This document shows, piece after piece, positions 1,675 to 60,488 of a DNA stretch of 64,000 bases. A program made the position numbers and the translations under genes. The notes beneath the pieces are model-generated. The model made no database searches, was not told the DNA's origin, and saw only the letters and a program-made list of their open reading frames with translations. Source of the DNA: an uncultured virus (IMG/VR IMGVR_UViG_3300025390_000008). Lineage: Duplodnaviria > Heunggongvirae > Uroviricota > Caudoviricetes. Position 1 is the stretch's first letter; every line of letters starts with the position of its first letter. The stretch lies in the IMG/VR virus record IMGVR_UViG_3300025390_000008; one strand, given 5' to 3'.

Positions 1675-1721
1675 GCTGGTAATATTACCACTTGGCAGGT
1701 ACAATTGTTCCTGCGTACCAA

Positions 1722-1896
1722 GACGCATGGGGATTGGCATAAATGGCTTACCCGCTGGAATAAACCGACAAATACCGGGTTAATGCCAAGTCGGGCTAAC
1801 AGTCCCCAGTCGTGTTGGTAATGGGTTGGGGGCGAGTAGGCGAAAGCTGAAAGGGTCGCCGTGTGCAGATACACCCTGCGATGCACACACCAACAA
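1722..1896 (+). ncRNA. candidate structured RNA, unknown family
   Basis: nested stems 1728-35/1801-08, 1736-40/1783-87, 1750-54/1776-80, 1813-19/1889-95, 1831-35/1856-60, 1861-67/1882-88; GAAA tetraloop. Confidence 0.5.
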
Positions 1897-1902
1897 TATT
1901 TT

Positions 1903-2051
1903 CGGGTTGAAGCGTGATGTGGTGGCACGATTGCACATTGGGTGCAAAACTTCTTCTGTGGCTACTTGCTTGAACGGCAACTTCTAGAGTGCGTAATAAA
2001 CAGCAGGGTGTGTTAGAAGTCTATCTGGTTCGACTCCAGACGACCCGACCA
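1903..2051 (+). tRNA. tRNA-like RNA (Pro-like acceptor) with 76-nt variable-region insertion; atypical
   Basis: acceptor CGGGTTG/CGACCCG + A + CCA; D-stem CGTG/CACG; anticodon stem TTGCA/TGCAA with loop CATTGGG; T-arm TCTGG-TTCGACT-CCAGA. Confidence 0.65.
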
Positions 2052-2052
2052 A

Positions 2053-2135
2053 TTTAGGGGGAAAGCGGATGCTGGTTACTTGTTCTAGACAGGGCACATA
2101 AAGAGACACTAGACGCAGCGAGTACCCCACCTAAA
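2053..2135 (+). ncRNA. candidate structured RNA element
   Basis: TTTAGG/CCTAAA, GGGG/CCCC, GCTG/CAGC and TCTAG/CTAGA nested pairings. Confidence 0.35.
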
Positions 2136-2143
2136 AAAAGTTG

Positions 2144-2170
2144 TTGACAACAGTTCTATCTGTGTATAAT
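2144..2170 (+). promoter_or_regulatory. putative sigma70 promoter
   Basis: TTGACA and TATAAT consensus boxes, but only a 15-bp spacer. Confidence 0.5.
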
Positions 2171-2223
2171 CCAAAACATCAACGGATTGGTAACCCGTTG
2201 TAGTTCGTAGAAACGCAACCGCA

Positions 2224-2330
2224 AACCCATTGGTGAGCGGGCTTCGTCAAAGCTGGGATGTCCTGTCTACGCAGGCTCTTATGCGGCAACCAAGCCTAAA
2301 GCTCGTTCACCAATGGGTTTTTTGCTTTTT
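2224..2330 (+). terminator. long inverted repeat with T tail (terminator/attenuator)
   Basis: AAACCCATTGGTGAGCGGGCTT ... AAGCTCGTTCACCAATGGGTTT then TTTGCTTTTT. Confidence 0.6.
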
Positions 2331-2760
2331 AGCCGTATACCTTGATCTGGTAATTTAACGGGCACATGAACGGTTTGGCCCAGATCGAGAGCCATAAAAA
2401 GTATCGACGTGGCAAGCGCGGGTGGAGATAGCGCCAGATGTTGAGTAAACCGCCAGAACGGATCTAGGTCGAGAGATTGAGGTAATCCGGGGCAACGGCA
2501 ACATTTGGGACAAGCTCGGTCAGTGCGCTAAGAAGGGGTCTCACAATGGGCCTAAATGTCTGACAGCTACGGCGGAACATTGAGAGATGACCGTAGCCAA
2601 TGTAACGAAGGAAACGACCGACGTGATATTGTTCTTCAGCCAACCCCGCGTCCTGTGGGCTAGGGGTGGGTTGTGTCCAGAGCTTCAGTCTTCTCCCTCC
2701 GTGATGTGGGTGTAATACCTTGTATTTAGTGGCTCAGACCGATACTTACCGGAGATGTAG

Positions 2761-3354
2761 ATGGCTAATCAGGTTGATAAGAGAGTTAAGGGTAGTGCCT
2801 TACCTTGGTTTATCACGTCGCGGGTCCGAGCTGATCGTCGGCTGGGGCTGAGTGAGATGGAGCAGGCGTGTCTAGCCCTGGAGGCTGAAGGTATGCCCTG
2901 CCCTGCCGATGTAAGCTTTGAGGCGTGGGTCAGGACCAACTTTGCCTATATCTGTGCTAGGTATATGGAGAAGTATCCAAAGCCTATTGGCAGTAAGGTA
3001 AAGCCCCGTCCGTCCAGGGCTCAGCGCAAGGCAGCTAGTCAACTTCGTCGTAACGCCAAGTCAGAAAAAGCGCCCGTTAAGCGGGTCGTCAAGGTGTGTG
3101 GTGTTGATGTGACCACCGACGCCTTTTTATCGACGTATGAATGGCGCAGGGTGCGTATGGAGGCGCTGAAGAAGTTTGGGCCTAAGTGTCAGTGCTGTGG
3201 AGCTACTCCCGCCCAAGGAGCTGTTATGAACGTTGACCACATCAAGCCACGTAAGCTGTATCCAAACTTAGCCCTCAATGTAAACAATCTTCAGATCCTA
3301 TGCCATGAGTGCAACCACGGTAAGGGCAATTGGGATCAAACCGACTGGCGGTAA
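2761..3354 (+). CDS. HNH endonuclease
   Basis: C-terminal CQCCG..NVDHIKP..NLQILCHECNHGK; SD GGAG. Confidence 0.85.
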   Translation: MANQVDKRVKGSALPWFITSRVRADRRLGLSEMEQACLALEAEGMPCPADVSFEAWVRTNFAYICARYMEKYPKPIGSKVKPRPSRAQRKAASQLRRNAKSEKAPVKRVVKVCGVDVTTDAFLSTYEWRRVRMEALKKFGPKCQCCGATPAQGAVMNVDHIKPRKLYPNLALNVNNLQILCHECNHGKGNWDQTDWR

Positions 3355-3466
3355 AAATAATTTGACGGAGATGAAAAAAAGTATTGCATGATAATTTTCC
3401 TATGATATGCTACCACCTACAAAGACACCAGAACAACCAGTTGACAATTACAGGGAGCACGGCAAA

Positions 3467-3922
3467 ATGAGAAAACGGACAAAGCGCAAGGTGTATGCAC
3501 TGGTGAACGTTATTCAGCACGCTATGGAGGGAGCGGCGCTGGTAGACGGTAAGCCGCTGGAGGATTTAAGGACGAGGGAGTTGCTGGCTTTGGAGGCGTT
3601 CCGATCGGGCACAGCGACACCGAATGATTGGCGGTCTATTTCGGCGATGGTGAACATTGCTGAGGTGATGGCTAAGAAGGGCGTGGGGCCAGAGGCGATT
3701 GAGGTTTGCCGAGAGGCGGAGCTTCAGTTGCTGGATGACCATGTCAGGTTTGAGAAGACCGGAAAGATGGGCACGACAGCGGGGGGCTTAACGGCTTACC
3801 GCGAGGTGTATGAATACCATGACTTGCAGAGGACATCTATCAGCAGGTCAGAGTATGAGAGGTGGATAAAGAAGACCGCTGACATTTTGAAGAGCGGCCA
3901 GGATGTAGTTCATTTAACCTAA
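3467..3922 (+). CDS. hypothetical phage protein
   Basis: MRKRTKRKVYAL start with GGAG upstream; 151 aa. Confidence 0.7.
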   Translation: MRKRTKRKVYALVNVIQHAMEGAALVDGKPLEDLRTRELLALEAFRSGTATPNDWRSISAMVNIAEVMAKKGVGPEAIEVCREAELQLLDDHVRFEKTGKMGTTAGGLTAYREVYEYHDLQRTSISRSEYERWIKKTADILKSGQDVVHLT

Positions 3923-3934
3923 AAAGGAGTTTGT

Positions 3935-4282
3935 ATGAAACGAGAGATTAACGATAACGTGGCGGCTTGTAAACAGATCGATCACGACCAGCGGCTGGTA
4001 ACGTTACCAGTTTACGTTCACCACTACCGCCAATACGATGGCAAGTTTGCTTTTTCGATCTCATCGTTTGACCAAAGCAAATACAGCTCGGAGTATGTGT
4101 TGGTGGGTAAGACTGAGTTGGTGTATTTAGTTCCAGAGGAATTCGATCCGATCGCCCAAGAGGTGGCTGCCCTGCGCCGCAAGAAGATGGACGTGATCAA
4201 TGAGTTCAATAAGCGGGTCAAAGAGATCGAGGAGCAGATCGGTAAGCTGACTGCTATTGAACACACGCCTGCGGAGTTCTGA
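3935..4282 (+). CDS. hypothetical protein, C-terminal coiled coil
   Basis: SD AAGGAG; 115 aa. Confidence 0.7.
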   Translation: MKREINDNVAACKQIDHDQRLVTLPVYVHHYRQYDGKFAFSISSFDQSKYSSEYVLVGKTELVYLVPEEFDPIAQEVAALRRKKMDVINEFNKRVKEIEEQIGKLTAIEHTPAEF

Positions 4283-4283
4283 C

Positions 4284-4673
4284 ATGGGAGTAGCAACAGC
4301 AGTCGCCATCTCGGCGGCAACATCAGCAAATATTGCGGCTCAGCACGCAGCAGAATCAGCAGCTCGGGCAGAGTGCATAGCCTACGTGCCAACCTATAAA
4401 CACGCAGGGGCTACGCTGGAACAGATCCACTACTACGCCTATTGCGCGGAGAAGCTATACCCTCAGCCGCATGACGTAGACCGTAATGACGTCATCATAT
4501 TCAAGGTTGCTTTGATCTTGATCTTTATCGGTGCTGGCGTAGGCGCTTATTTGAATCGTGACGATTATGATGGACCGTTTATTGGCGCGTTGTATGGCTC
4601 GGTGGGAATGCTTTTAGCCGAGTTCATTTTGGCCATTGTTGTGATGGCTTTGTACTTTATATTTTTGGGGTGA
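4284..4673 (+). CDS. membrane protein (two C-terminal TM helices)
   Basis: hydrophobic segments IIFKVALILIFIGAGVG and LLAEFILAIVVMALYFIFLG. Confidence 0.65.
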   Translation: MGVATAVAISAATSANIAAQHAAESAARAECIAYVPTYKHAGATLEQIHYYAYCAEKLYPQPHDVDRNDVIIFKVALILIFIGAGVGAYLNRDDYDGPFIGALYGSVGMLLAEFILAIVVMALYFIFLG

Positions 4674-4676
4674 ATC

Positions 4677-4877
4677 ATGACCGGAAGCTATTACATCGGC
4701 CAGACCAAGGCACCGCTTGCGAAGGAGTGGCGCTTGGTCGCCAAGGGGGACGACCCTATGGAAGTCGCCAAGAAGACCACTGCCCTAGCCAACAAGGGCG
4801 AGACGATGGCTCGCGTGATGTGGGTATCGGATGAGCGGTGGGACAACACCAAAGTAATTCAGGAGATGAAGGTATGA
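4677..4877 (+). CDS. hypothetical protein
   Basis: 66-aa ORF in tightly packed operon. Confidence 0.6.
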   Translation: MTGSYYIGQTKAPLAKEWRLVAKGDDPMEVAKKTTALANKGETMARVMWVSDERWDNTKVIQEMKV

Positions 4878-5624: not shown

Positions 5625-6425
5625 ATGAAAATTGAAAACATCAAGCTAGAACACATTCGTATCGATCGCGGCACTCAATCACGCGAGAAGGAAAGTCAAG
5701 AGCAGATAGACAACATCGCTGAGGCGATTAACAACGGCGAAGAGATCGACCCAGCAGTTATCTTTGACGACGGCCAATACTTTTTTCTGGCAGACGGTTT
5801 CCACCGCTATCACGCCCACAAGAAGCAAGGCCAAGCCACCATGCCCTGCATTCGCAAGCTGGGAACCCTGCGTGACGCCCAGATCTACGCCTTCCAAGAG
5901 GCAAACAAATTCCAAAAGAGCCTGCCCCGTAGCCATGCTGACAAGCGCCGCTGTGTGAACTGGTGCTTGGATGACTTGGAATACCAAGACCTTGCCGACC
6001 GCGAGATCGCCCGAATGGTAGACGTTAGCCATGTGTTGGTGAGCCGTATGCGTAAGGAGCGCATGACGCCCAAGGAGGCCAAACCTGCCAAGCTAAAGAA
6101 CGTGGTCGAACCCAAGCTGGAATTATTACCACCTGAGAAAGTGGAATTATTACCAGCAGCCAACGACATGGACGCCGAAGCCATGAATTATTTGCAGGAA
6201 GAGAACCAGCGTCTTGAGAAGCAGTTGGCCGTGGTAGCGATGGAGGCCACGCCCGAAGAGAAAGAATTGGCCAAGACCATGATCGAAGAGCTGCAAGAGG
6301 AGGTCAAGATGCTCCGCATTGAGAACCAGTCCCTCAAGATCAGTCGTGATACTTACCAAGCAGAGAATGCCCAGCTCATCAAGCAGGTGGGTATGCTTCA
6401 GCGACAACTAAAAAAAGCAGCGTAA
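5625..6425 (+). CDS. ParB-like protein (ParB N-terminal domain, HTH, coiled coil)
   Basis: QSR..LADGFHRYHA (ParB box II-like), EAN..LP, HTH LADREIARMVDVSHVLVSRMR, C-terminal coiled coil. Confidence 0.8.
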   Translation: MKIENIKLEHIRIDRGTQSREKESQEQIDNIAEAINNGEEIDPAVIFDDGQYFFLADGFHRYHAHKKQGQATMPCIRKLGTLRDAQIYAFQEANKFQKSLPRSHADKRRCVNWCLDDLEYQDLADREIARMVDVSHVLVSRMRKERMTPKEAKPAKLKNVVEPKLELLPPEKVELLPAANDMDAEAMNYLQEENQRLEKQLAVVAMEATPEEKELAKTMIEELQEEVKMLRIENQSLKISRDTYQAENAQLIKQVGMLQRQLKKAA

Positions 6426-6469
6426 GGTAGCCCAAGCTGGCGGGCTAGTGCCAGCAGTTGAGGGATTGT

Positions 6470-8851
6470 ATGAGTAGCTTAAATTTGCGCGACTACCAAG
6501 CGCAGGCGATAGAGTCTCTGCGAAGGGGCTTTGCGGCGGGATACAGGACACAGATCCTGGTTGCGCCCACAGGGGCAGGCAAGACCGAGATGGCCATTGC
6601 CCTGCTAGAGGCGGCCATGAACAAGGGCAGTAACAGCTCGATGATCTTGGACCGCATTGTCTTGTGTGACCAGACCAGTAAGCGGCTGGAGAAATACAAG
6701 ATTGATCACGGCGTTCTACAGGCTGGGCATTGGCGATACCGACCGTATGAAAAGATACAGGTCTGCTCGGCCCAGACGCTGGAGAGTCGCGGGGATTTCC
6801 CTGACCTCAAGCTCATGATCGTAGATGAGTGCCACCAAACCAGAGCGGCCACGGTGGAGTTCATTAAGAACAACCCGAGCATCAAGGTGATCGGCCTAAC
6901 AGCCACGCCCTTTACCAAGGGTCTTGGAAATATTTACGAGCATGTGGTCTCGCCCATCACGACCAAGCAGCTGGTGGAGCAGGGCAGTCTGGTTCCGCTT
7001 CGTGTATTCATTGCCAAAGAGATCGACATGACGGGGGCCAAGAAGGTCGCTGGCGAGTGGTCTCAGAAAGAATCCACAGAGCGCGGGCTCAAGATCACGG
7101 GTGACGTGGTGGCTGAGTGGATCAAAAAGACCCATGAGATATTCAAGCGTCCGGTCAAGACCGTGGTGTTTGCCTCGGGGGTAAAGCACGCAGAGGACTT
7201 GTCACGCAAGTTTGCGGAGCAGGGATACAACTTCATCAGCATTAGTTACAAGGATGCCGATGACTTCAAGCGTGACGTGGTCGAAGACTTTTCCAAGCCC
7301 GATACAGAGATTCATGGGCTCATAGCCACAGACATATTGACCAAGGGATTTGATTGTGTTCTGGAGGGATCTCGCGTCCTGACTGAAAGAGGACTTGTTG
7401 CCATTGACCAAATTTTGTTAAATGATAAGATATGGGATGGTGTGGAGTTTGTTTCCCATCATGGTGTTATTTACAAAGGAGTGAGAGATGTCATCACATA
7501 CGCCGGACTTACAGCCACCCCAGATCACAAAGTCAAAACAGCACAAGGATGGATTGAATTTGGTGAATGTGCGAGACGTGGAATTCCAATCATTAAAACC
7601 GGAAATGGTGGGCAAGCGATTCAAGAACATGAAGGTCAGTTCTCCTTTGGTCTATCTTGCCAACAGACAGACCAACAAAGAGCAACTGATGTGCGAGTGT
7701 CTGGATTGTGGCCGCTTGGAATTGGTGCTTATTTCCATGTTGTATGCGCCTCAATGGGCTGGTTGTTCGGATTGCGCTGCTCCACAGTGGCTTGTTCGTC
7801 GATGCAAGGCGCAGAAAGCCAGATGCACGGATCCATTGCATCCGTCTTATCGGGATTATGGCGGACGAGGAATTCGCTTCATGTTCAGCAGTCCAAGACT
7901 GGCGGCGCAATGGATAAAGAAGAATATTGGAATACCAGAAAAAATATCAATCAACATACATCTGGACAGGATCAACAACAATGGTCATTACGAACCTGGA
8001 AATCTACGTTGGTCAACTCGGCAAGAGAACAACTCTCATACGCGTCGAAGCAAGTATGTAGAGCGATTTCATTTGTTTCGTCTAAATTATCCAGAGATCA
8101 AATACGCAGACAAGACCCTCAGAAATTTGATGGGCTACGGCCTCAGCGACCAGCAGATCATCGAGAGATTCCATCTTCCATCAGACAAGCCAAAGGGCGT
8201 GTATGGGACATACTCAACTGCGGTCCCAGAAATTGCTTTACTTGCGAAGACCTCCTGATTCATAACTGCGCCGATGTTTTTATAGGTATATCTGCTAGGC
8301 CCTTCAGTAAATCATTGTCGTCGCACATTCAACAGATGGGTCGGGTCATGCGTCCGTCTCCTGGAAAATCCTTCGGTGTCTGGCTTGACCATTCGGGCAA
8401 CTACATTCGTTTCCGAGAGGATTGGGATGATGTGTTTGCGAACGGTGTATCTGAGCTGGATGATGGCAAGGAGAAGGCCAAGAAGGAGAAGACAGACAAG
8501 GAGAAGGAGGCGGCCAAGTGTCCGAAGTGTGGCGCGTTGTGGCGGAGCAGTAGTGACACCTGCGCCCATTGTGGCTACATCAAGGAGACCAAGAAGAAGT
8601 TGGCAAGTGTTCCAGGTGAGATGGAAGAATTAACAGCCAATGCAAACCGAGACGAGAAGCAGGAGTTTTGGTCTGAGCTGCAATACAAAGTGAAGGTTGA
8701 GGGTTGGAACCCAGGTCGAGCGGCGCATACCTACAGGGACAAGTTCGGGGTTTGGCCTAGGGGTTTACACGATAACGTTCGAGTGCCAAGTTTGGCCACA
8801 GAGCGGTTCATTAAGTCTAGAATTATTGCCTACATGAAAGGGAAGAAGTGA
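6470..8851 (+). CDS. SF2 DEAD/DEAH helicase with C-terminal Zn finger, containing an intein
   Basis: LRDYQ, APTGAGKT, IVDECH, GLTATP, TKGFD, QQMGRVMR, CPKC..CAHC. Confidence 0.92.
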   Translation: MSSLNLRDYQAQAIESLRRGFAAGYRTQILVAPTGAGKTEMAIALLEAAMNKGSNSSMILDRIVLCDQTSKRLEKYKIDHGVLQAGHWRYRPYEKIQVCSAQTLESRGDFPDLKLMIVDECHQTRAATVEFIKNNPSIKVIGLTATPFTKGLGNIYEHVVSPITTKQLVEQGSLVPLRVFIAKEIDMTGAKKVAGEWSQKESTERGLKITGDVVAEWIKKTHEIFKRPVKTVVFASGVKHAEDLSRKFAEQGYNFISISYKDADDFKRDVVEDFSKPDTEIHGLIATDILTKGFDCVLEGSRVLTERGLVAIDQILLNDKIWDGVEFVSHHGVIYKGVRDVITYAGLTATPDHKVKTAQGWIEFGECARRGIPIIKTGNGGQAIQEHEGQFSFGLSCQQTDQQRATDVRVSGLWPLGIGAYFHVVCASMGWLFGLRCSTVACSSMQGAESQMHGSIASVLSGLWRTRNSLHVQQSKTGGAMDKEEYWNTRKNINQHTSGQDQQQWSLRTWKSTLVNSAREQLSYASKQVCRAISFVSSKLSRDQIRRQDPQKFDGLRPQRPADHREIPSSIRQAKGRVWDILNCGPRNCFTCEDLLIHNCADVFIGISARPFSKSLSSHIQQMGRVMRPSPGKSFGVWLDHSGNYIRFREDWDDVFANGVSELDDGKEKAKKEKTDKEKEAAKCPKCGALWRSSSDTCAHCGYIKETKKKLASVPGEMEELTANANRDEKQEFWSELQYKVKVEGWNPGRAAHTYRDKFGVWPRGLHDNVRVPSLATERFIKSRIIAYMKGKK
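7355..8266 (+). mobile_element. intein (304 aa) in helicase motif V
   Basis: begins C (CVLEGSRVLT), block B TATPDH, block F VWDILN, ends LIHN followed by Cys+1; removal restores TKGFD|CADV. Confidence 0.92.
7488..8258 (+). CDS. HNH homing endonuclease encoded in the +1 frame inside the intein
   Basis: AAGGAG-6nt-ATG; CECLDCG, CSDC, RCTDP..YRDYGGRGI, LDRINNNGHYEPGNLRWST..ENN. Confidence 0.88.
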   Translation: MSSHTPDLQPPQITKSKQHKDGLNLVNVRDVEFQSLKPEMVGKRFKNMKVSSPLVYLANRQTNKEQLMCECLDCGRLELVLISMLYAPQWAGCSDCAAPQWLVRRCKAQKARCTDPLHPSYRDYGGRGIRFMFSSPRLAAQWIKKNIGIPEKISINIHLDRINNNGHYEPGNLRWSTRQENNSHTRRSKYVERFHLFRLNYPEIKYADKTLRNLMGYGLSDQQIIERFHLPSDKPKGVYGTYSTAVPEIALLAKTS

Positions 8852-9717
8852 TGGATTTCCTGCAGTTCGCAAGGGCCAAAGGGCTCTTGATGGAAACGTT
8901 ACCACCGATCGGGGTATGGAAAAGATACGCAACAGAAGACCATCCATCTAAGCGCAACGGCTCTGCCAAATACATGGGCACACATGGATTCGTAGTCAAC
9001 CATGCAATGGACACAAGCGCGGACACCTGGAGGCCAGACAGTTCTTATGTAATGGACGCTGCAAAGCAAGCCGAGCTGGCCAGACAGGCGCGTGAAGCTG
9101 AGTTACGAACACAGGAATTGAACCGAGAGGCGGCGCAGAAGGCGGCATGGATACTGAAGCAGTCCCGCTTCGGCCGCCATAAGTATCTGATCAACAAAGG
9201 ATTTCCAGACGAGGAGGGTAATGTCTGGAACCAGGATGGTCGGTCATTGTTAATAATTCCAATGCGGCTCGGTGCGCGGCTGGTCGGATGCCAAATGATT
9301 GACGAGCAGGGGCAGAAGAAATTTCTGTTCGGCCAACGGACAAGTAATGCGTCCTTCGTGTTCGACAACAAAGGCCCCAACATATTGTGCGAGGGGTATG
9401 CCACAGCGTTGAGCGTTCGGGCTGCCTTACGCGCCATGAAGCGGCGGTATACGATTCATGTTTGCTTTAGTGCGTCCAACATGATCAAGGTCGCTGCTGG
9501 TCTGCCATCGGGGCTGGTGATTGCGGACAATGATTCGTCGGCCACAGGGGAGAGGGCGGCCAAGCAGATTGGTTGGCCATACTGGATGTCGTCGGTCATA
9601 GGCAATGACGCAAACGACGATATGCAGGCCCAGGGAATCTATAAATTCTCTCAGGGCCTGGTCAGGTCATTGCACCTTCTGGTTGGCCACAATGAACGGT
9701 TGAACGGCCAGAATTAG
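8851..9717 (+). CDS. Toprim-domain DNA primase
   Basis: LLIIPM..LVGCQMI..KKFL, ILCEGYATALS, IADND, NDAND. Confidence 0.85.
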   Translation: MDFLQFARAKGLLMETLPPIGVWKRYATEDHPSKRNGSAKYMGTHGFVVNHAMDTSADTWRPDSSYVMDAAKQAELARQAREAELRTQELNREAAQKAAWILKQSRFGRHKYLINKGFPDEEGNVWNQDGRSLLIIPMRLGARLVGCQMIDEQGQKKFLFGQRTSNASFVFDNKGPNILCEGYATALSVRAALRAMKRRYTIHVCFSASNMIKVAAGLPSGLVIADNDSSATGERAAKQIGWPYWMSSVIGNDANDDMQAQGIYKFSQGLVRSLHLLVGHNERLNGQN

Positions 9718-10780: not shown

Positions 10781-10788
10781 GCTTCCTC

Positions 10789-47715: not shown

Positions 47716-50700
47716 ATGCCGTTTCAAGAATTTACGGGGCAGTTGGATGCGCCTTCGATGGCCCCCAAGTGGCAAGAGTTCAATGGAACCCTTGACGATT
47801 TAACTCCCAAGGCCGTCCCCAAACCGGAGGCTCCTAAGCCACAGGCTGGTTTGATGAGCGAGCTGGAGCGCGGCGGTCATGAGATCTACTCTAATCTCCG
47901 CACGGCGCTCACTGCCCCGTTCGTTGGCTCTGATGTAGCCGCTCGGGCCGGTGCAGAGCGTGCAGAGGAATACAACAAGACTGCCGCTCCCTCGGTGGAT
48001 GTGCTGGGCGATATCCAGAAAGCGTACCAAGAGAAGGGCATCCTAAGCTCTATTGGCGCTGGCTTAAAAGACCTGCCTGCTTTGGTGGGCCAGGTTGCTC
48101 CTACGGTGGCTGAGTATGGTGCTGCTGAAGCGCTGCTGCCCGTGGTTGGTCCTGCTGCTTTGTTCTTGGCTCAGCACTACGGTCAAAACGTCGCCCAGAC
48201 TGCGGCCACTCAGATGGCTCAAGGTCGTGATGTGGATGTGGATTCCCTGAAGGCGCTGGGTTATGCCGTGCCTCAGGCCGCTCTGGACGTGGCACATATT
48301 TCCATTCCTCTTGGTAAGCAAGTCATCGGCAAGATCTTTGGCAGAGGCGTAGAGGAAGCTGTTGAGAAGGGTGCGATGAGCGAGGCTGAGAAGCTGGCTC
48401 AAGAGCAGCTGGCCAAGAAGAGCTTTGGCGAATCCATTCAAGACGGCCTCAAGACTGGTTTGGTCAGCGGCGTGCCCATCATGGTAGCGCAGACAGCCTT
48501 GGAACGCGCATACAACGGCGATAAGCTGTTCGACGATGATGCCCTACACCAATACGGTAGCGCTGCTTTAAGTGGCGCTCTGATGGCTCCTATGGGCGTG
48601 CTCGGTGCTTTGTCCGAGAAGAGCCAAGCTGCCAAGGCTGTAGGCGAGCGTGATTCCGCTGCCGCCAAAGCTGCTGCTGAGGCCGCTGAAGCTGAGGCAA
48701 ACAAGCCTGAGAATCTGCTCAAACTGCACGAAGATTTCCAGAATGCCAAGGCGGAGCAGGCTGATCTGCGTAACCAGATTCCAAGCAAGCCTAAGAAGGA
48801 TGCGCCCGAGGAAGAGGTCCAGGCTTACAACGATGCCAAGACTGCTGCCGATCAGCATTTGAACGACGTTCTCAAGCCGTTGAAGTTGGAATTTGACCAG
48901 CGCAAAGATGCCATCATGCCGGTGGTATTGGCCGACCAAACGGCCAAGATCAATGCTGCGGCTCAAGCCCAGTCGGCTATGGAGACGGCTATCCCTCAAG
49001 AGACGGCTGCTGCTCCTATTAACAATGCCCCTCCGATTACACGCGCTACCTTGCCCGGTCGGGACATGGCCGCTCAGCTCACTGGTAACGTTGGCTTCAA
49101 TCAGAACCTGTTGCAGGCTGGCCGTGAAGGCGCAGAACAGCGTGATGTTGCCACCCAGAATGCCATGCGCGTTGCTGCTGATAAACGTGCCAACCAGATC
49201 CTGAGCACGACGTTCAGCAACGACCCTGCCATGAATATCATGAAGCAGACCTCGGCCCTGAAACAGATGGGCTATGAGGCCGTGCCGGACAAGAAGGGTA
49301 ACCTGGTAGCCAAGCCTATCGCTGAGCCCGCACCAGTTGAGGCGCCAGCACCAACTGCTCCGCTGCAAGCCAACCCTGAGACCATGCGTGCAAACTTGGA
49401 AGCACCTGCTGGCCAAGCCAATGCCGCCTTCATGCAAGCTGCCAGAGAGGCGCGTGAGGCTACTGCCAAACGTGATGCTGCCGCTCAGAAGGCGCAGGAG
49501 CAGGCTAAGCAAGCTCAGGCTAACCAAGTCCTGTCCACCACGTTTAGTCCCGATCCATCTATCAATGCGCTGCGTCAGAACGCCGCCTTGAAACAGTTGG
49601 GTTATGAGTCTGTGCTGGATAAAAACGGCAAGCAAGTTGCTCGTCCAGTGGTAACGTTACCACCTGAGCTCGCTCCTGAGCCCGCACCAGCCCCTGCTCC
49701 GTCGCCCGTTGGTAATGCTGACGCCTTGCGCGCACGTCTGGCCACTGCTGGTAACGAAGCCAACCAGAATATGCTGCAGGCTGCCCGCGATCGACTGGCC
49801 GCCCTTGAGAAACAGAAGGCTGCCGACACTACCGCCCAAGCTCAGAACATTGTCAAGAGCACGATGAGCGCTGATCCGGCGATCGATATTGCCCGTAAGA
49901 AGAGCGCCCTGGCTGAGATTGGCCATGAGTTGGTTCAAGATCCGAAGACCGGCGAGATTACAGCGCAACCCATCAAGGAAGCTGCTCCCGAGATGTCAGA
50001 CGTTCGTAAGAATGTTTTGAGCCGTCAGTACGACGAAGAGTTCAAGAGCCTTTTCCCTGATCATGAGCCTGAGCATTTGGAACAGTTCCGCTCCATGCCT
50101 GCTGAGTCCAAGGATGCCTTCTTGCAGTTATTCTCTGATGCCAAAGAGCGTCAGACCATAGAGAATCCTTCGTTTGACGAGTTGGCATCTAAGCAGACTA
50201 AACCTGTCGCTGGGCCAAAGAACGTTCCCGAGAATCCTGATGTTGTTGAATCATCCAAAGAAAGCAAACAGCTGACTGCCGATATCAACAAGCTGAAGAA
50301 CAGCAAAGACAACTTAAAGAACGCGCTGAAGGGTTCGTTGAATGCCAATGACGCTACCGATGTAAGCCCTGAGAAAGATTTCCTGCGTTACTTTGCCAGC
50401 AAAGACGGTCGAGGCCGGTCTATTTCCGAATTGGTTTCAGACAAAACGTTGGATCGTTTCTTGCCAGAAAATATGCGCCCAGGCTCTGATGACTTTGACG
50501 CTCAGGTCTCGGAGGAGTACATCAAGCAAAAGCTGCGTGATGAGGACTACGCAACCCCTGAGGATGCACAAGAGATCAGCAGGTTGAGCGATCAGAAGTG
50601 GGAGCTGGAAAGCTATCTCGAAGAGCAAGAGCGTGCCAAGAAGGCCAACGAATCTGTAGCTGGAATTTCTACCGAAGTAACGCCTGAGGGTTTACCCGTA

Positions 50701-53700
50701 CGTACAGATAATCTGTACCGTGTGCAGGGCGAGGCCAAGGGCGTGCCGGTTAACTTGGTACAAAGACTGGTTAACCAGATCAGAGAAGGCTGGGCGAATG
50801 CCCCTGAGATACAAGTTCACGCCGATGAATCTACTTTGCCTGATCACATTCGTGCCCAAGCTGAGCGCGATAAGGTGACTGGCCAGATCCCTGGTGTCTA
50901 CGATCCCAACTCCAAGATTGTTCACATCGTCAGCAGTAACTTGGCAGATGTTAAAGATCTGTTTGCCACTGTGGCCCACGAAGCAGCAGGCCACTTTGGT
51001 TTGCGCGAGATGCTGGGTGACCAGTATGGCCGCACGATGGACAAGATCTACGAAGGCAACAAGGCCGTTCGTGAAGCTGCTGATGAGAAGCTGAAGGGCT
51101 CTAACCTGTCGCGTCAGGTGGCCACAGAAGAAGTCTTGGCGGAAATGGCTGAGAGCGAGAAGACCTCGACACCGGCTGAGCGCAGTGCCCTGAAGCAGAT
51201 CTATGACACCATTCGTCGCTGGGTCTACGACAAGTTTGGTATTGGCGGGATGACCGACAATGACGTTAAGCAGATCGTTGCTAATGCCCGCAAGTTTGTG
51301 GTCGAGGGCGGTGAGAAGGGCGCTGGTAATATTACCAGTGAAGCCGTTTACCGTACCAAGTACAACCCTGGCTTCGAGAAGGCTGCTGACCTGACCAAGA
51401 AAGTCTTGTCGTCTGAGCGCCCATTCATGGAGCAGTTTAATAAGACTGCCTTTGGCCGTGCGTCGCTTGGCTGGATCCAGAAAGTCCAAGATCAATACCG
51501 TCCTTTCCTGAAGCTTACGCAACTCAAGGATGCCAATGGCCAACGGTTGATCGGCGACTCGGCTGGTAACCAGATGATGTCTGACCTGCGGTTCTATCAG
51601 CAGCGTCTGAACTTCTTGGGTGCCGTCATCCAGAACGGTGCCTTGACATTCAAGAAAGGCGTCGTGGATGGCGCTAAGCGTTCGCTCTACGAGACCGATG
51701 GCAAGGAAAGCCTGAAGCAGGTCTTTACTGAATTGCGCCCTGCAGACAAGATTACCGGCAGCCGTGAAGCTACCAATGCCTTGTATTCGCTGTGGGCTAT
51801 TGCCGAGCGGGTGCGTAAGGGCGGCGCTACGCTGGAGCAGTTGAACTTTGACCCGAACATCGTCAATGCCAAGTCGCTCAAGGCGGCGATGGATGAGATT
51901 AAACAGCATCCTGAGCTGATCAAGACGTTCGAGAGGGCCAACGAAACCTATCAGAATTTCAACTCCAACATGATGAAGTTCGCGGTGGATGCTGGTGCTA
52001 TTCCCAAGGCTACTGCCGACAAGCTGTTGTCGCGTCGGGACTACGTTCCTTACTACCGCGAAGAGCCTGATGGAACTATTTCCATGATGTCCAATGGTGA
52101 GTCGATCTTTAAGGTTGGCAACATCAAGACCCAGCCTGAGTTGAAAGCTCTGATTGGCGGCGACCAGCGGATCTTGGACTTTGCTGAGAGCTCTGTGCGT
52201 AATGCCAACATGCTGCTAAGCATGGGTATGCGTAACCAGGCGGTTAAGAATTCTATGTTTGAGCTGCAGAAGATCGGCTTAGTCGATATCCGCGACAAGG
52301 CTCCGAAGAACATGGAAAAGGCCGTGGAGTTCAAAGTCCAAGGCAAGAGCAAGTATGCCGTCTTTGACGACGCCGCTACTGAGAAGCTGAACATTCCTAC
52401 CCAGTTATTCATCAAGGGCTTGGAAGGTGTTCCAACACAGATGAGCACATGGCTCAAGGTGATGAGCATTCCCAGTACCGTCCTGAAAGAAATGTTCGTT
52501 GCCAACCCCATCTCGGCAGCGCGTATCGTTTTCAAGGATACGATGTCTTCTGCCCTGGTGGCGGGCTCTGACTTTGGCAAGATCGTTGATTCCTTGCAGA
52601 GCGTTAAAGACGGTTTGATGGTCAAGCGTGGCCTGTCGGGCGGTCAGTTGTTCACTGGCCAACCAGAAGAGATTGCCCGTGTGCTGCGTCAGGCTCAAGC
52701 CGGTGGTGTTAACGCTTCCAGCGCCTTGGCTATGGCCCATGCCTTGCACGCTCAAGCCGATGCTGCGACCCGCCAGATTCGCTATGACAGCTACCTGCAT
52801 CAAGGTCTGAATGAGTTTGACGCCAACCTGATGGCGCTGGAGTCGATGAACTTTACCAAGCGTGGTTTGTCTCCCAGCATCCATATCTTGAATGCGCTGA
52901 ACCCGTTCATTAACTCTCAGATCCAAGGCGTCAATACGTTGATCGCAGCCATTCGTGGCGAGATGCCTATGCAAGAGCAGCTGCGTATTAAGCAGAAGAT
53001 CCTTGCTCGCGGTGCGATGATTGCTGGCGCGACAATGCTTTACTCTGCGCTTATGCAGGACAACAAGCACTACCGTGACGCCATGCCGGACCAGAAGTAT
53101 TCCAACTGGTACATGCCCTTCCCAGGCTTGGAAGAGCCGGTAAAGATTCCAATTCCGTTTGAAGCCGGTATGCTGTTCAAGTCGGTGCCTGAGGCGATGG
53201 TCGAGCTGTTCATGAAGCACGACAAGTCGGCGATCGACGGCCTGAAGATGACGGCCATGCGGATGATCCCCGGCCTTGAGACTTCTGCTGTGGCTCAAGC
53301 TGTTCGCCCTGGCTTGGAGGCTTACACCAATACATCCTTGCAGACTGGTGAGACGATCCAGAGCGAACGTGAGTTGAAGATGCTTCCCGGCGAACGTATC
53401 CGTCCTGGCACTTCTGGCATTGCTCAGGAGATTGGTGGCGCTTTGAATCTGTCACCCGTCATGATCGATCACGTCATTGGTGGATACACCAGCTCGATGG
53501 GCATGGCTCTGATGCACATTACTGATGGCATCGTTGGCTCCAAGATGCAGGGCGCTCCGGTGGCCAGCGACTTGTCTCAGACGCCTGTGATTGGTTCGCT
53601 GTTCGCTCGGGACGGCGGGGCTATTTTGCAGGAAGCTATGGGCAAGTTCCATGACTTGGAAGAAGTGAAGAACACTTTCACGTCTTTGAAGAATGCTGGC

Positions 53701-53922: not shown

Positions 53923-53931
53923 CTGGAATTA

Positions 53932-54213
53932 TTACCACTCAGCGGATTCTGGATAGTTTTCCATGAGCCGCTGGATGGTAACGTTTAGGGCGTCGAGCTC
54001 ATCCATTTTGGCGATGATCCATGCCCGCTTCTCGCCGTGGATACCCATCTTAGGTCCTTGGTGGCAGTCGTAACAGAGGGCGATGCACGTGTACTGACTG
54101 CGCTGCCGGAAGTGGTGGGCGGCGCTGGGTCCAGGTGCATTGCATACTGAGCACGGGAGAAGCTTCACCCTTTTGAGATGACGCCTCTCCTTTGCGCTTA
54201 GCTTGTTATTCAC
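53932..54213 (-). CDS. Ref/DUF968-like HNH-fold Zn protein
   Basis: LPCSVC..AHH..IALCYDCHQG..GIHG. Confidence 0.7.
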   Translation of the reverse strand: MNNKLSAKERRHLKRVKLLPCSVCNAPGPSAAHHFRQRSQYTCIALCYDCHQGPKMGIHGEKRAWIIAKMDELDALNVTIQRLMENYPESAEW

Positions 54214-54404
54214 TTAATCCGTTCCTCAAGGCACGCTCTGGCCGTCTCATAGGCGCGGATAGCTTTCCCTTTTGAGGTGTAGCTATCGTCGTAGCCCATG
54301 AGGGCGAACGCTGCGAAGAAGTCCAGCAGTGTCATTTCCTCGATGCTGGGGACCGGCGGTGGTGCCGCCAGTGCCTCAAGGCCTTCAAGCTTTGGCTTGC
54401 TCAT
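54210..54404 (-). CDS. small protein (MTLLDFFAAFAL)
   Basis: related in pattern to 979-1194. Confidence 0.65.
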   Translation of the reverse strand: MSKPKLEGLEALAAPPPVPSIEEMTLLDFFAAFALMGYDDSYTSKGKAIRAYETARACLEERIK

Positions 54405-54687
54405 AGCCTGCCTCGTTGGTCAGTTGTGTTAACTGTTCCACGATCATGTCGGTGATGGGCACGCCCGAGATGGCGATGCTCGATACCAGCTTGTGGCGCT
54501 TGACCACTTCCTCGGCGTCGCGCATGGCCTTCTTGTAGCCTGCCATGTACTGACTGTCGCCTTCAACGATCATGGTGATGGCGTCGCGGACCAGTGAAGA
54601 AGCTTTGCGTTGTCCAGCTGCTTCTTTCAGCTTGTCGTAGATGTCTCGTCGCAAGTGGACTGAGTAAGGGATTAAGCGGTCATCCAT
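54385..54687 (-). CDS. ribbon-helix-helix-like DNA-binding protein
   Basis: YSVHLRRDIYDKLKEAA..ASSLVRDAI. Confidence 0.55.
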   Translation of the reverse strand: MDDRLIPYSVHLRRDIYDKLKEAAGQRKASSLVRDAITMIVEGDSQYMAGYKKAMRDAEEVVKRHKLVSSIAISGVPITDMIVEQLTQLTNEAGYEQAKA

Positions 54688-57811: not shown

Positions 57812-57962
57812 CCCGCATCTCCTCAAGTACAGTTTTAAATTGGTTGTTGACAATATCCAGTTTCAACATTTCTAAAATACCAACTACATGTGATGCTGGC
57901 AAAGTACCGTTGTATTTCATAACAAGATCAAATAATTCAACCATCAATGTACTAGCGTTCAT
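57789..57962 (-). CDS. hypothetical protein
   Basis: MNASTLMVEL..VVGILEMLKL. Confidence 0.6.
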   Translation of the reverse strand: MNASTLMVELFDLVMKYNGTLPASHVVGILEMLKLDIVNNQFKTVLEEMRDEARKNI

Positions 57963-58180
57963 GTGTTCTTCTCCTTGAGTGGATCGGTTGTGAACTTGAT
58001 GTCGCCAATGGCAACCCAATAGCCCTCTCGGTATCCTTCGTAGTGAGCAAGCCACCTTCCGTTCAAATCTTCATCGCTCATGTGGGGAACGTCGCCTTTT
58101 TTCATTGCCTCGACGTAAGCGTTCTTTCGGTTGGTCGCATATCTTGCGGCATCAAGATGCAGTTGTTCTGATGGTGTCAT
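57959..58180 (-). CDS. hypothetical cassette protein
   Basis: ends LKEKNT. Confidence 0.65.
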   Translation of the reverse strand: MTPSEQLHLDAARYATNRKNAYVEAMKKGDVPHMSDEDLNGRWLAHYEGYREGYWVAIGDIKFTTDPLKEKNT

Positions 58181-58461
58181 GTGTTCTTCTCCTCGGCGTA
58201 GCCGTTCTTTTGCTTGAGTTTGGCTTCAATGGCTTGGGTCAGATTACGCAACCACGATTCATCTTTTGCACAAGTGGTTGTTTCTTCAAGTGTTAGCATT
58301 TCCTCATCAGTCAGCCCAACCCATTCACGCTTCTTTAGGCGCTCTCTTGCGGCGATTGCCCTAATAAACATTGACATGGGGTGCGTAACGGGATACGCAG
58401 ATTCAAGACCAGCCTCTTCTCTAAACCAAGCTAGGTTTTTAACCAAGTCCTCGTCTGTCAT
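58177..58461 (-). CDS. hypothetical cassette protein
   Basis: WVGLTDEE..IEAKLKQKNGYAEEKNT. Confidence 0.65.
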   Translation of the reverse strand: MTDEDLVKNLAWFREEAGLESAYPVTHPMSMFIRAIAARERLKKREWVGLTDEEMLTLEETTTCAKDESWLRNLTQAIEAKLKQKNGYAEEKNT

Positions 58462-58631
58462 GTGTTCTTCTCCTTTTCAACTGGCCCATTAAACAGCGCC
58501 ATGCCCAGCGATCCAAGCATGACCGCCTTCAACTCTTCGCGCTCCTCTTCTGGATATTCACTGGCGACCTCATCCATGATTTTCATAATGCTGGCGGCCA
58601 CTTCTTTTGCGGGAATCGGCTTTGCGCTCAT
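58458..58631 (-). CDS. hypothetical cassette protein
   Basis: MSAKPIPAKE..EKEKNT, 57 aa. Confidence 0.6.
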   Translation of the reverse strand: MSAKPIPAKEVAASIMKIMDEVASEYPEEEREELKAVMLGSLGMALFNGPVEKEKNT

Positions 58632-58825
58632 GTGTTCTTCTCCTTGTCGTATGGCCCTACCCCCAACTCTTTGGCGATTTTGTGTTGCAACTCCGTGATT
58701 CGGTGAGTGTTGCCAGCCACTTGTGCATTTAGCAAACGAACATAACCAAGCGTGTTTTCATTGTGGTCTACAAGCAAACGCAGCTCTTCTTGCAACCGTT
58801 TTAGATACGTTGTTGGTTTATCCAT
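58628..58825 (-). CDS. hypothetical cassette protein
   Basis: MDKPTTYL..DKEKNT. Confidence 0.6.
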   Translation of the reverse strand: MDKPTTYLKRLQEELRLLVDHNENTLGYVRLLNAQVAGNTHRITELQHKIAKELGVGPYDKEKNT

Positions 58826-59162
58826 TGTTCTTCTCCTTGAGTTTGGCTTCGATGGCTCGGGCGCGACCTTCTGCTGTGATGTAATTTCCCAAACATTCAT
58901 CGCGCTCCTCATCCGTCAACCCAACCCATTCACGCTTGCCCATTGCGTTGACTGCTTTGTCCACGCTTGATTGCATCTGTTTTTGCATTCCATCAATAAA
59001 GCCACGCTCGTATTCGCTGGCGTGCTTTCGCCAATCATCGTTGATATCCTGCAGTATCTGCTTGCCCAAGTTGGACTGTCTTTCCACCTCGTTAAAGGCT
59101 TCGTCTTCCTCCGGCGTCCAATCAACGCTGAGTCGGTCAAATACAAGTTCTACTTTTTTCAT
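58818..59162 (-). CDS. hypothetical cassette protein
   Basis: WTPEEDEAF..WVGLTDEE..IEAKLKEKNNG. Confidence 0.65.
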   Translation of the reverse strand: MKKVELVFDRLSVDWTPEEDEAFNEVERQSNLGKQILQDINDDWRKHASEYERGFIDGMQKQMQSSVDKAVNAMGKREWVGLTDEERDECLGNYITAEGRARAIEAKLKEKNNG

Positions 59163-59171
59163 TGCTACTCC

Positions 59172-59393
59172 TTAGATGATGGTTGTTCTGCGGGTGGCGG
59201 ACTTTGGAAAGAACACCAGCGAGAAGACGGGGAAGTCGATCTCTTCTTTCGGGTCAACCCGCTCGGTGTTAATAATTACAGCGCCTTGCTGCATGTGGCG
59301 ACGTAGTTCTCCGCCGCTCATGTCAGTGCATGGATGCTCTGCTGACATAGGAATGGCAGGGCGTAAGTTGCTCAGGTATTGCAGGGCGTTCAT
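59172..59393 (-). CDS. hypothetical protein
   Basis: ELRRHMQQGAVIIN..FSLVFFPKS. Confidence 0.65.
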   Translation of the reverse strand: MNALQYLSNLRPAIPMSAEHPCTDMSGGELRRHMQQGAVIINTERVDPKEEIDFPVFSLVFFPKSATRRTTII

Positions 59394-59626
59394 TGCTGCT
59401 CATTCAACTTCTTTTTCAGTGCACGGTTCTCATCCATGACTTCTTGAAGCATCTTTAGATGTTCTTTGTGGCGCTGCTCCATGACGGAAACCACTTTTTC
59501 AAAGTCAAGCATCCATTTCTTGATTGCTTGCTTGAGTAGCTCGGCGTTATACCAAATGTAGTGTTCGGTGACACCTTCAATCTTTACGCTGTCTTTCACA
59601 ATAAATTCTTTAGTATTCTCATCCAT
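59390..59626 (-). CDS. hypothetical coiled-coil protein
   Basis: MDENTKEF; SD GGAG. Confidence 0.55.
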   Translation of the reverse strand: MDENTKEFIVKDSVKIEGVTEHYIWYNAELLKQAIKKWMLDFEKVVSVMEQRHKEHLKMLQEVMDENRALKKKLNEQQ

Positions 59627-60488
59627 GTTGCTGCTCCTGGTAACGTTTCCACTGATCACAAAAAGGTGCTGCTTGGCAGTAGCCCTCGCAGCGCGTTCTA
59701 CCGCCAGGACGAACCTCAATGGCGTATCCCTTGGTCAATACCGCTTCAGCTTCTTCCAGCGTCTTGTGGACTGATTTGGCCCGCTTACCGCCCTCTTTCA
59801 TCACGGCGTACATCGTGGGTTTCTCCCACATCTCTTCAGGTGTGCATTCAGGCAGGTCGAAGTTGGCGGCGATCGCAAACACGGCATCGTTGTGTGCGCT
59901 CAGGCGTCTGGCTACATACTGCTCGGCGTATTGAAAATCCCAGATCGGGATATCAATGATGACCACTGGGGCTTGTGGGTAGTTCTCGCGGGTAGTTGCT
60001 TCGCGGGCAGACCAGTCGCGGATGATGGCGCAAATCTGCAGCTTCTTTACATTACTTTGCTTTACTTTACGAACCAGCCAAGCATAGATGTTCAGCTGGT
60101 TCTCCCAATCGGCCTTGGTGTTCATAACAGACCATGCACCAGTAACTTTGTAGTCGCTGATGATGATGCCGTCTTCCTCGACTTCTTGCAGGTCAATAGC
60201 GCCAGAGATATGCCAGCCGTTAAATTCGATGTGCAGCCGCTCTTCAACGATGTGGTGATTGTCTTTGCCGTGCTCCAAGATGCCGTGGACGGCGGAGCCA
60301 AAGATAGACCAGACCATTTCAGAGGCGTCTTGTGTCAGCTCATCCCAATGCTTGTTCTTTAGCTGAACAATGCGGGGCGAATTCAGAATTTCTGTAGCAG
60401 ATATCTGGGACGCGCCCTTGGAATACTGAGGCCGCTTGATCACATTTACAAATGTGTCCGGCAAGTTGTGGACATTGGTTATACGCAT
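59619..60488 (-). CDS. PD-(D/E)XK (RecB/Cas4-like) exonuclease, allele B (uninterrupted)
   Basis: FGSAVHGILE, ISGAIDL, DYK, QLNIY, RCEGYC..FCDQW. Confidence 0.85.
   Translation of the reverse strand: MRITNVHNLPDTFVNVIKRPQYSKGASQISATEILNSPRIVQLKNKHWDELTQDASEMVWSIFGSAVHGILEHGKDNHHIVEERLHIEFNGWHISGAIDLQEVEEDGIIISDYKVTGAWSVMNTKADWENQLNIYAWLVRKVKQSNVKKLQICAIIRDWSAREATTRENYPQAPVVIIDIPIWDFQYAEQYVARRLSAHNDAVFAIAANFDLPECTPEEMWEKPTMYAVMKEGGKRAKSVHKTLEEAEAVLTKGYAIEVRPGGRTRCEGYCQAAPFCDQWKRYQEQQHG

Follow-up and report, generated by a model that had tools for sequence, protein, structure and literature searches.

A dispersed palindrome family in a podophage-like genome as probable cognate sites of an orphan ParB-fold protein, with a possible role in long-range control

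Introduction

Phages commonly encode orphan ParB-fold proteins, most of which lack known targets (PMC12704722). The genome of an uncultured caudoviricete (IMG/VR IMGVR_UViG_3300025390_000008) raises the question of which protein reads a 16-bp palindrome that recurs along its whole length, and for what. The stretch analyzed here (64,000 nucleotides, hereafter the window) comprises a podophage-like genome of 59.3 kb and a terminal repeat (1192–4706 recurring at 60486–64000, 99.9%). An initial annotation proposed that a ParB-like protein without a ParA partner binds a network of 23 near-identical palindromes, possibly to condense, protect or package the genome, and named a LexA-like helix-turn-helix (HTH) protein as the alternative binder. 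No earlier description of this phage ParB/palindrome system was found in the literature searched, most subscription papers and supplements lying outside it.

Results

A dispersed palindrome family that codon usage does not explain

All 23 coordinates were found to carry the assigned 16-mers. Compared to the consensus, 16 are exact, six have one mismatch, and one has two. Across the whole window, 27 matches with at most one mismatch were counted, where 0.36 were expected and 100 dinucleotide shuffles gave three at most. Two of these (60970 and 63289) are the terminal-repeat copies of sites 1676 and 3995, and three one-mismatch sites were added to the original list.

1676–1691, exact site, directly 3′ of the terminator at 1648–1675
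3995–4010, exact site within gene 3935–4282; absent in the close relative G026
6117–6132, exact site in the parB linker
6141–6156, exact site in the parB linker, in tandem with 6117
8890–8905, one-mismatch site at the primase 5′ end; relatives also have a primase-frame site
9247–9262, weak two-mismatch site within the primase gene
13035–13050, exact site upstream of the terminase small subunit gene (terS)
13069–13084, exact site upstream of terS, in tandem with 13035
13941–13956, exact site between terS and the LexA-like gene
13986–14001, exact site ending one base 5′ of the LexA-like start codon; the most conserved position in relatives
22327–22342, exact site 3′ of a hairpin with a T run behind the capsid gene
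25918–25933, extra weak one-mismatch site, added here
26146–26161, one-mismatch site within gene 25839–27821
26614–26629, one-mismatch site within gene 25839–27821
32711–32726, extra one-mismatch site, added here; absent in G026
39697–39712, extra weak one-mismatch site, added here
39769–39784, exact site within virion gene 39321–41318
44046–44061, one-mismatch site within gene 43547–45856
44205–44220, one-mismatch site within gene 43547–45856; absent in G026
46692–46707, exact site within gene 45866–47704
49648–49663, exact site in the LPD38 gene
51323–51338, exact site in the LPD38 gene
52706–52721, one-mismatch site in the LPD38 gene
53923–53938, exact site where the late and leftward operons converge; relatives keep the position with other motifs
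59266–59281, exact site within gene 59172–59393
59637–59652, exact site where the exonuclease gene overlaps gene 59390–59719

About 17 of the 23 listed sites lie inside genes, where they are read in different frames, as the initial annotation had pointed out. Synonymous-codon shuffling left a mean of 0.11 exact in-gene copies (maximum one in 300 shuffles) against the ten present, and a mean of 1.72 (maximum six) against 19 at one mismatch or fewer. A protein-repeat or codon-bias origin of the palindromes is ruled out by these codon-preserving shuffles. Because the consensus had itself been derived from the sites, a de novo palindrome search was added, and its largest dispersed 16-bp family had nine members, compared to one or two in 15 block-shuffled genomes. 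A Poisson arm scan, the p-values of which are poorly calibrated, was taken as a lead only.

The reported arrangement also held. Tandem pairs lie in parB, upstream of terS and upstream of the LexA-like gene; single sites follow a terminator (1676) and a hairpin with a T run (22327); and site 53923 starts one base past the stop of the last late gene and shares bases with the stop of the facing gene. Sites after terminators or at operon convergence are away from promoters, and sigma-70 promoter scans of the window gave no excess over shuffles. The likeness to chromosomal parS did not survive as an argument; the four-base centre that had been compared to parS is present in only six of the 23 sites.

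The palindrome covaries with the HTH of the ParB-like protein

The genes on which the following comparisons bear are:

5625–6425, plus strand, orphan ParB-fold protein of 266 aa, the proposed binder (PHROG 1033, fold matches)
5982–6062, plus strand, HTH coding stretch with the putative specificity residues R126 (6000–6002) and H136 (6030–6032), the top mutual-information columns in the bacterial and phage sets
6458–9717, plus strand, SF2 helicase and Toprim primase, found behind parB in 25 of 27 contigs
13168–13854, plus strand, terminase small subunit (terS), start read from the sequence
14003–14311, plus strand, LexA-type winged-helix protein without a peptidase domain (PF01726, E 2e-7), the first gene 3′ of the most conserved site
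54385–54687, ribbon-helix-helix-like protein, a candidate binder that was rejected

Across related phage contigs, the palindrome varies between genomes and tracks ParB residues R126 and H136. Contigs whose ParB carries R126 together with H136 and a following P, V or T (55 contigs, 1.26 Mb) hold 224 matches to the window-type motif, compared to three in the other ParB contigs (52 contigs, 1.0 Mb). Other motifs likewise fall in their own HTH class in 28/29, 23/23, and 12/14 matches, the contigs of this count being overlapping and including the window and near-identical copies.

Bacterial homologues gave a second, independent data set. A perfect palindrome lies within 60 nt behind the HTH in 24 of 65 homologues and in 0 of 260 control windows (p 2e-19); it is usually single there, the genome-wide spread being seen in phages. 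Among 35 bacterial homologues below 60% identity, R126 was the top column for palindrome position 3 (z 5.5) and H136 for position 4 (z 9.1; 0/400 shuffles). The same two columns led again in 24 phage genomes (z 6.7 and 5.9), with motif labels that were assigned by hand per genome, a few from one to three sites, as they also were for the position mapping and the tree. Three genomes added later fit the code at positions 3–4 (G050, with a palindrome inside parB, and G041) or 4–5 (G037); at positions 5–6 the code is loose. On a ParB tree computed without the HTH, the window-type motif appears in six separate lineages, and in one starred sister pair both the HTH and the motif are different. The ParB of MW202545 (26% identical) has its own palindrome twice in the linker, outside this register.

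The covariation in phages and, separately, in bacteria argues strongly that the ParB-like protein is the binder, as first proposed, and the palindromes are very probably its cognate sites. The KorB/OB system pairs a ParB-family protein with multiple cognate palindromes along its replicon, and this trait is found here as well, as judged by covariation only.

Other candidate binders fare poorly

The initial annotation had suggested comparing the motif with both the ParB-like and the LexA-like gene in relatives, and only the ParB half of this covariation, at R126 and H136, was found. Though the tandem sites right before the LexA-like gene include the most conserved position, the recognition helix of its product is nearly invariant across at least ten motif classes, and its best columns (z 3.9) fall outside that helix. 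Likewise, the ribbon-helix-helix-like protein keeps the same N-terminal strand across motif classes, and the code is seen in bacterial ParB homologues without those genes being considered. That either protein is the binder is extremely improbable. No proteobacterial SOS box was found in the window (the consensus searched being proteobacterial), and, together with a helix that does not covary and the missing peptidase domain, this speaks against membership of a LexA/SOS regulon.

In contig L012, a LexA-like protein 88% identical to that of the window, with the same helix, has a different repeat upstream. This comparison carries little weight, as ParB is absent from the contig and the repeat proved to be a window-type variant.

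LacI-type operators have an outline similar to these palindromes, and a host regulator of this kind could be the binder in principle, all the more as ParB-less relatives have palindrome sets without an assigned binder. However, the motif tracks the HTH of the phage protein across lineages and in bacterial homologues, which makes a host regulator very unlikely. Other palindrome sets occur in six ParB-less relatives and in Pag-Yong1, so such a set need not imply ParB, and the rule "no ParB, no palindromes" proved false; among ParB-less relatives, palindrome families above four copies are absent only in HTVC023P and DSL-LC04 (50 kb each).

A ParB fold with an altered nucleotide pocket

The ParB-like protein consists of a ParB/sulfiredoxin N-domain (~1–98), a three-helix HTH (~104–147), a disordered linker, and a C-terminal coiled coil. 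It matches PHROG 1033 (E 4e-12) but reaches only 21.5 bits against PF02195, below the 26.3 cut-off. TIGR00180, weak and far below cut-off in 7/70 family members, gave no match for the window protein. Its AF2 model (pLDDT 84) has ParB, Noc, and KorB as best Foldseek matches and VIA Z scores of 11–12 against sulfiredoxin, PadC, and KorB, so the modeled N-domain has the ParB-CTPase fold. The best sequence match is sulfiredoxin.

Residues Q18, R20, R61, and N94 are invariant. Alignment to Myxococcus xanthus ParB places F59 at the catalytic E93 and A93 at the second glutamate; with residue roles taken from PMC8367383, both glutamates and one arginine of the pocket are replaced. PadC has a Phe at the same catalytic position (PMC8367383). 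PadC and sulfiredoxin are the best VIA and sequence matches, yet neither has a comparable site-specific HTH. Because the two catalytic glutamates are missing, CTP-clamp action is only putative, and it may not hold at all given the sulfiredoxin match and the fact that the ParB fold also binds ATP or GTP, the nucleotide not being predictable from sequence (PMC12704722).

The absence of a ParA partner was confirmed: no ParA-type ATPase is annotated in the window, and PF13614 was found in 0/21 relatives (15 of them at least 90% complete; control rings 14/14). No integrase was found in the 15 near-complete relatives (at least 90% complete).

The protein shares its N-domain fold, HTH, dimer coil, and 16-bp palindrome with chromosomal ParB-parS and Noc-NBS, and the Bacillus spo0J linker likewise contains a parS. 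It differs from these systems by the lack of ParA, the TIGR00180 score, another site sequence, and unclustered sites. Two traits of ParABS systems, a cognate ParA and a match at the cut-offs of the canonical ParB models (TIGR00180, PF02195), are thus absent. In some bacteria ParB loads SMC even where ParA is lacking, and the fold would suit partition of a plasmid-like or carrier-state genome through host ParA or SMC. N15 SopB with IR1–4 and actinophage parABS also combine a phage-encoded ParB with several palindromic sites, the N15 prophage-plasmid using four IR centromere sites (PMC7205306). Those, however, are partition systems of plasmid prophages with a ParA partner, and the missing ParA-type ATPase, the missing integrase, and the canonical model score all point away from partition, which we consider highly unlikely.

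Plasmid homologues with 37–42% identity are annotated "streptomycin biosynthesis regulator", and in one Atlas cluster at 0.91, PF27534 (NovG_helical) is on 30% of the members. StrR/NovG-like activators of antibiotic clusters may share the ParB-like N-domain and three-helix HTH (PMC10886168), a possible kinship drawn from homologue annotation, the Atlas lead, and the published description of StrR. In StrR, the HTH (197–230) is much farther from the ParB domain (34–118) than in the phage protein, and the DNA-binding mode and ParB-domain role of such regulators are called open in PMC10886168.

Site positions persist while the motif changes

The following distribution rests on positions mapped in individual genomes. 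A site lies just upstream or at the 5′ end of the LexA-like gene in 16 of 19 mapped contigs that have this gene and just behind it in two; one lies in parB or within 25 bp of it in 14/21 contigs, in the primase gene in ten mapped contigs, and no more than 75 bp from the end of the LPD38 match in eight. The sites that keep their position are thus found ahead of the packaging operon, within parB and primase, and where the late operon ends.

Site number in ParB-bearing relatives ranges from ~0–3 to ~25, with 0–3 despite ParB in G014, G016, G017, G019, G021, G027, and G037. Compared to G026, three of 16 alignable sites are lost, and conservation is modest (4.2% mismatches versus 8.3% in flanks). 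The sites are spaced no more regularly than expected by chance (CV 0.80, P = 0.22).

These data bear on whether the protein coats, condenses or shields the genome or organizes it for packaging. Sites are genome-wide, virion genes included, and tandem sites flank terS; moreover, lost catalytic glutamates could give long-lived clamps, as with E102A in Caulobacter ParB (PMC8367383). Nevertheless, spacing is random, complete relatives make do with ~3 sites, and the nearest model, KorB, did not condense DNA (PMC11790492). The suggested condensation, protection or packaging found no positive support, and we regard such a structural role as unlikely.

A replication role has more in its favor. The protein could mark origins or restart points and recruit the helicase-primase via its coiled coil, like an initiator with sites in its own gene. 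Helicase and primase follow parB in most contigs and also in MW202545, sites lie within parB and primase, no DNA polymerase or other initiator is annotated in the window, and ParB-less relatives lack detectable homologues of the whole parB-helicase-primase module. Conversely, parB does not adjoin the helicase in G006 and G007, bacterial homologues have the in-gene site as well, many sites are located in virion genes, and the GC skew is uninformative, with no clear origin. Such a role is conceivable but rather doubtful.

Discussion

Long-range control from loading sites, as with KorB or VirB, is the best reading overall, and by analogy we give it about an even chance. It fits better than condensation, protection or packaging since operon borders and replication genes are where sites keep their positions. 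Weighing against it are the in-gene location of about 17 of the 23 sites, the sites after terminators or at operon convergence, the low site numbers in several ParB-bearing relatives, the losses in G026 with only modest conservation, the missing glutamates, and the palindrome sets of ParB-less relatives. On plasmid RK2, KorB with its OB operators likewise combines a ParB-fold dimer with palindromes near and far from promoters and a proposed long-range control, KorB being a CTP clamp that acts from distal operators (PMC11790492). By contrast, the system described here belongs to a phage without ParA or integrase, has a short three-helix HTH, lacks the catalytic glutamates, and has most sites in genes. 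Traits of KorB/OB-type regulators also include a clamp-locking KorA-like partner and NTP-dependent clamp sliding with an effect on promoters.

In the proposed mechanism, a dimer would read each half-site through its HTH, R126 corresponding to G at half-site position 3, H136 to G at position 4, and residues 135–138 to positions 5–6. The basic layout of the family would be one site written in its own gene just behind the HTH, which phages would have multiplied over the whole genome. Made from the parB-helicase-primase operon, the protein would load at the palindromes, probably close as a long-lived nucleotide-bound clamp, spread, and act at a distance on phage promoters. Its main targets may be the LexA-like/terminase/virion operon and its own operon, which would help time late genes against replication.

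More tentatively, these sequences could reflect a large ParB subfamily that writes its own loading site directly behind the HTH, so that reader and site would share one short DNA stretch and could change specificity jointly. Lytic-looking phages would have built on this a network of sites across the genome, serving a sliding clamp that is non-hydrolysing (or ATP-using) and couples replication to late transcription. If true, such a family would amount to a natural collection of orthogonal clamp/site pairs whose code can be read, and it would hint at the use that StrR-type antibiotic activators make of their ParB domain. Since the target is readable from sequence and the code is backed by two separate data sets, binding, nucleotide use, and clamp behavior can be tested directly on a small protein and short oligonucleotides. 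Should the clamp model hold, it would provide orthogonal DNA-labelling or loading pairs and would extend KorB/VirB-type long-range control to apparently lytic phages.

Genome organization

The window carries tailed-phage genes on its + strand (terminase, portal, GroES, capsid, tail, and a 2068-aa LPD38 protein) and ERF, SSB, and exonuclease genes on its − strand, and the parB-like, helicase, and primase genes occupy 5625–9717. Neither a polymerase nor an integrase was found among its annotations. Among cultured phages, the closest terminases (46–57%) come from HTVC023P-type pelagiphages, DSL-LC04, and Pag-Yong1. Because bases 1192–4706 recur at the end of the window, the genome unit is ~59.3 kb.

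1192–4706 and 60486–64000, terminal repeat
5625–6425 (+), parB-like gene, orphan ParB-fold protein of 266 aa
6458–8851, helicase gene
12945–12962, inverted repeat in a divergent intergenic region, beside a promoter-like site (12879–12906)
13168–13854 (+), terS, terminase small subunit gene
14003–14311 (+), LexA-like gene, winged-helix protein without peptidase domain
54385–54687 (−), conserved ribbon-helix-helix-like protein without Pfam or PHROG match, its N-terminal strand almost invariant in 25 genomes

The window ends are unequal. When 1–1191 was compared with 60116–60485, positions 1–355 and 60116–60470 were only 93% identical, and the first copy has ~0.8 kb additional with an HNH gene (377–883) and a gene at 979–1194, which suggests two strain variants in the assembly. 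The helicase is ~300 aa longer than that of the close relative G026 and is split between two profile matches, with an insert that resembles an intein.

Palindromic sites

All 23 sites of the 16-bp palindrome that the initial annotation listed are present, 16 exact, 6 with one mismatch, and 1 with two. Allowing at most one mismatch, the window holds 27 matches against 0.36 expected (2 of them terminal-repeat copies), and the enrichment persists against codon-preserving shuffles, with 10 exact in-gene sites compared to 0.11. In a de novo search, the largest dispersed palindrome family had 9 members vs 1–2 in shuffles. No regular spacing of the sites was found in the window. Sixteen sites could be aligned with G026, where 12 are identical, 1 has one change, and 3 are lost; in five close relatives, mismatches affected 23 of 544 site bases vs 340 of 4080 flank bases. 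At the level of sequence, the sites, their enrichment, and their covariation with ParB can be regarded as established.

Covariation of the motif with ParB

Many of the 27 related contigs (17–67 kb) retrieved for comparison have one dominant 16-bp palindrome per genome, whose sequence varies between genomes. Among 107 ParB-bearing contigs, which overlap and include the window and near-copies, the window-type motif had 224 matches in the 55 whose ParB carries R126, H136, and P, V, or T at 137, vs 3 in the other 52, and three other motifs sorted by their own HTH class (28/29, 23/23, and 12/14). In 24 genomes with both the ParB and LexA-like genes, whose motif labels we assigned, a few from 1–3 sites, R126 of ParB (z 6.7) was the best column for half-site position 3 and H136 (z 5.9) for position 4, terS columns peaked at z 4.5, and position 5 had no clear covarying column. 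The LexA-like HTH, proposed earlier as the alternative binder, is disfavored: its helix is almost without variation among relatives, and its columns peak at z 3.9, outside that helix. On a ParB tree made without residues 119–179, in which most deep forks are unresolved, the window-type motif occurs in six separate lineages and the His-Thr type in three; G038 and G050, a starred pair of sisters, share neither HTH nor motif.

The bacterial homologues, examined as an independent test, show the covariation as well. Of 80 loci from genomes of many phyla, 65 had a parsable HTH, and the best palindrome within 60 nt behind it was perfect in 24 and 7-of-8 in 19, compared to 0 and 18 of 260 control windows. 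The alignment had 79 rows, of which 54 had at least 7 pairs, 52 were in register, and 35 fell below 60% identity. In it, R126 was once more the top-ranked residue for position 3 and H136 for position 4, with residues 135–138 leading at positions 5–6. The code reads Arg with G at residue 126 and, at residue 136, His/Lys with G, Asn/Pro with T, Gln with A, and Glu/Asp with C; the Arg and His of the window ParB thus predict the G-G of its palindrome, and three genomes retrieved later (G050, G041, and G037) agree. In bacteria, the site is usually single and in-gene, further copies occurring in only 3 of 42 loci of at least 10 kb (5 copies in 738 kb). MW202545, whose ParB is 26% identical, carries a 17-mer of its own as 8 exact copies over 50 kb; two lie in the linker, in a different register. 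In the plasmid homologues H64, H65, and H73, the genes over the ParB-HTH module bear the annotation DNA methyltransferase or RuvC, and these are probable fusions.

The ParB-fold protein

The protein had 1871 homologues out of 2646 candidates. In its predicted model (pLDDT 84), a ParB/sulfiredoxin N-domain is followed by a three-helix HTH, which a disordered linker joins to a long coiled coil; the model matches ParB, Noc, KorB, and PadC. Among the top 120 homologues, changes in the linker peptide go with changes in the recognition helix, which suggests that the site is written into the parB gene. On comparative evidence, we predict with high confidence that this protein binds the palindromes; binding itself, dimer, clamp, and effect are proposed. 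Q18, R20, R61, and N94 are invariant, and F59 and A93 replace two glutamates that we infer, residue numbers included, to be the counterparts of those in Caulobacter ParB. PMC8367383 describes the latter as required for hydrolysis, E102A giving a locked clamp, and PadC as having Phe at the catalytic position; according to PMC12704722, the nucleotide bound by the fold can be CTP, ATP, or GTP.

Relatives without ParB

Only one of six at least 90%-complete relatives picked by capsid protein has a window-type ParB. The other five and G046 have no ParB_N domain and 0–2 window-type sites each. These six genomes (G042, G043, and G046–G049) each have a different palindrome family of 4–16 copies, nearly all in one 3–8.5-kb stretch. 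Pag-Yong1 (OL906435; loci L346 and L349), with no ParB match, repeats a 17-bp palindrome 33 times genome-wide, often just before small genes; a ribbon-helix-helix-like gene in its terS–terL interval (record 42384–42785) contains one copy, and its product is a candidate binder. Palindrome sets are thus common in this phage group, and the link between ParB and the set in the window comes from covariation, not mere presence.

Site positions and possible roles

Mapped with per-genome templates, sites number from 0–3 up to ~25 per genome. A site lies just upstream or at the 5′ end of the LexA-like gene in 16 of 19 contigs (just behind it in 2), in or beside parB in 14 of 21, in the primase in 10, and at most 75 bp from the LPD38 match end in 8. 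Upstream of the sites preceding the LexA-like gene, the 3′ end of terS has a short element (~13855–13865), followed by C-run/G-run inverted repeats, that is kept in distant relatives and is possibly a promoter or packaging signal. In the window, the two sites before the LexA-like gene enclose (13957–13985) a 12-bp imperfect palindrome that occurs twice and is conserved in close relatives; its copies are possible LexA-like protein sites. In L043–L070 (loci of relatives), each ParB site sits in a 70-bp tandem unit, 100–200 bp upstream of the LexA-like match, with a sequence that fits the IHF consensus. L022 and L025 have a perfect SOS-box-form palindrome ~0.8–1.1 kb upstream of parB; none was found in the window.

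The network is real, and the role of ParB and its sites is uncertain. In line with the initial annotation, no ParA partner for ParB was found (0 of 21 records); with no integrase found in the 15 near-complete records either, classical partition is unlikely, and we hold a partition role to be very improbable. With no ParA found and scores below family cut-offs, the protein is not a ParABS member. A replication role, to which the parB–helicase–primase order in 25 of 27 contigs lends support, seems unlikely, and coating or packaging somewhat more so. Homologue annotations and an Atlas lead suggest kinship with StrR/NovG, although the StrR HTH lies further out (PMC10886168). The phage ParB activators described in PMC13229309 have no DNA-binding domain and are a different case; N15 (PMC7205306) is another comparison system. 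A literature search, supplements excluded, returned no description of this ParB-palindrome network. The system working most like it is KorB-OB, the RK2 plasmid regulator and its operators (PMC11790492). Sites behind terminators, at the convergence, and inside genes fit loading points better than steric operators, and those conserved near the packaging genes and within ParB's own operon suit a control role. We consider it an even chance that ParB and its sites exert KorB/VirB-like long-range control.
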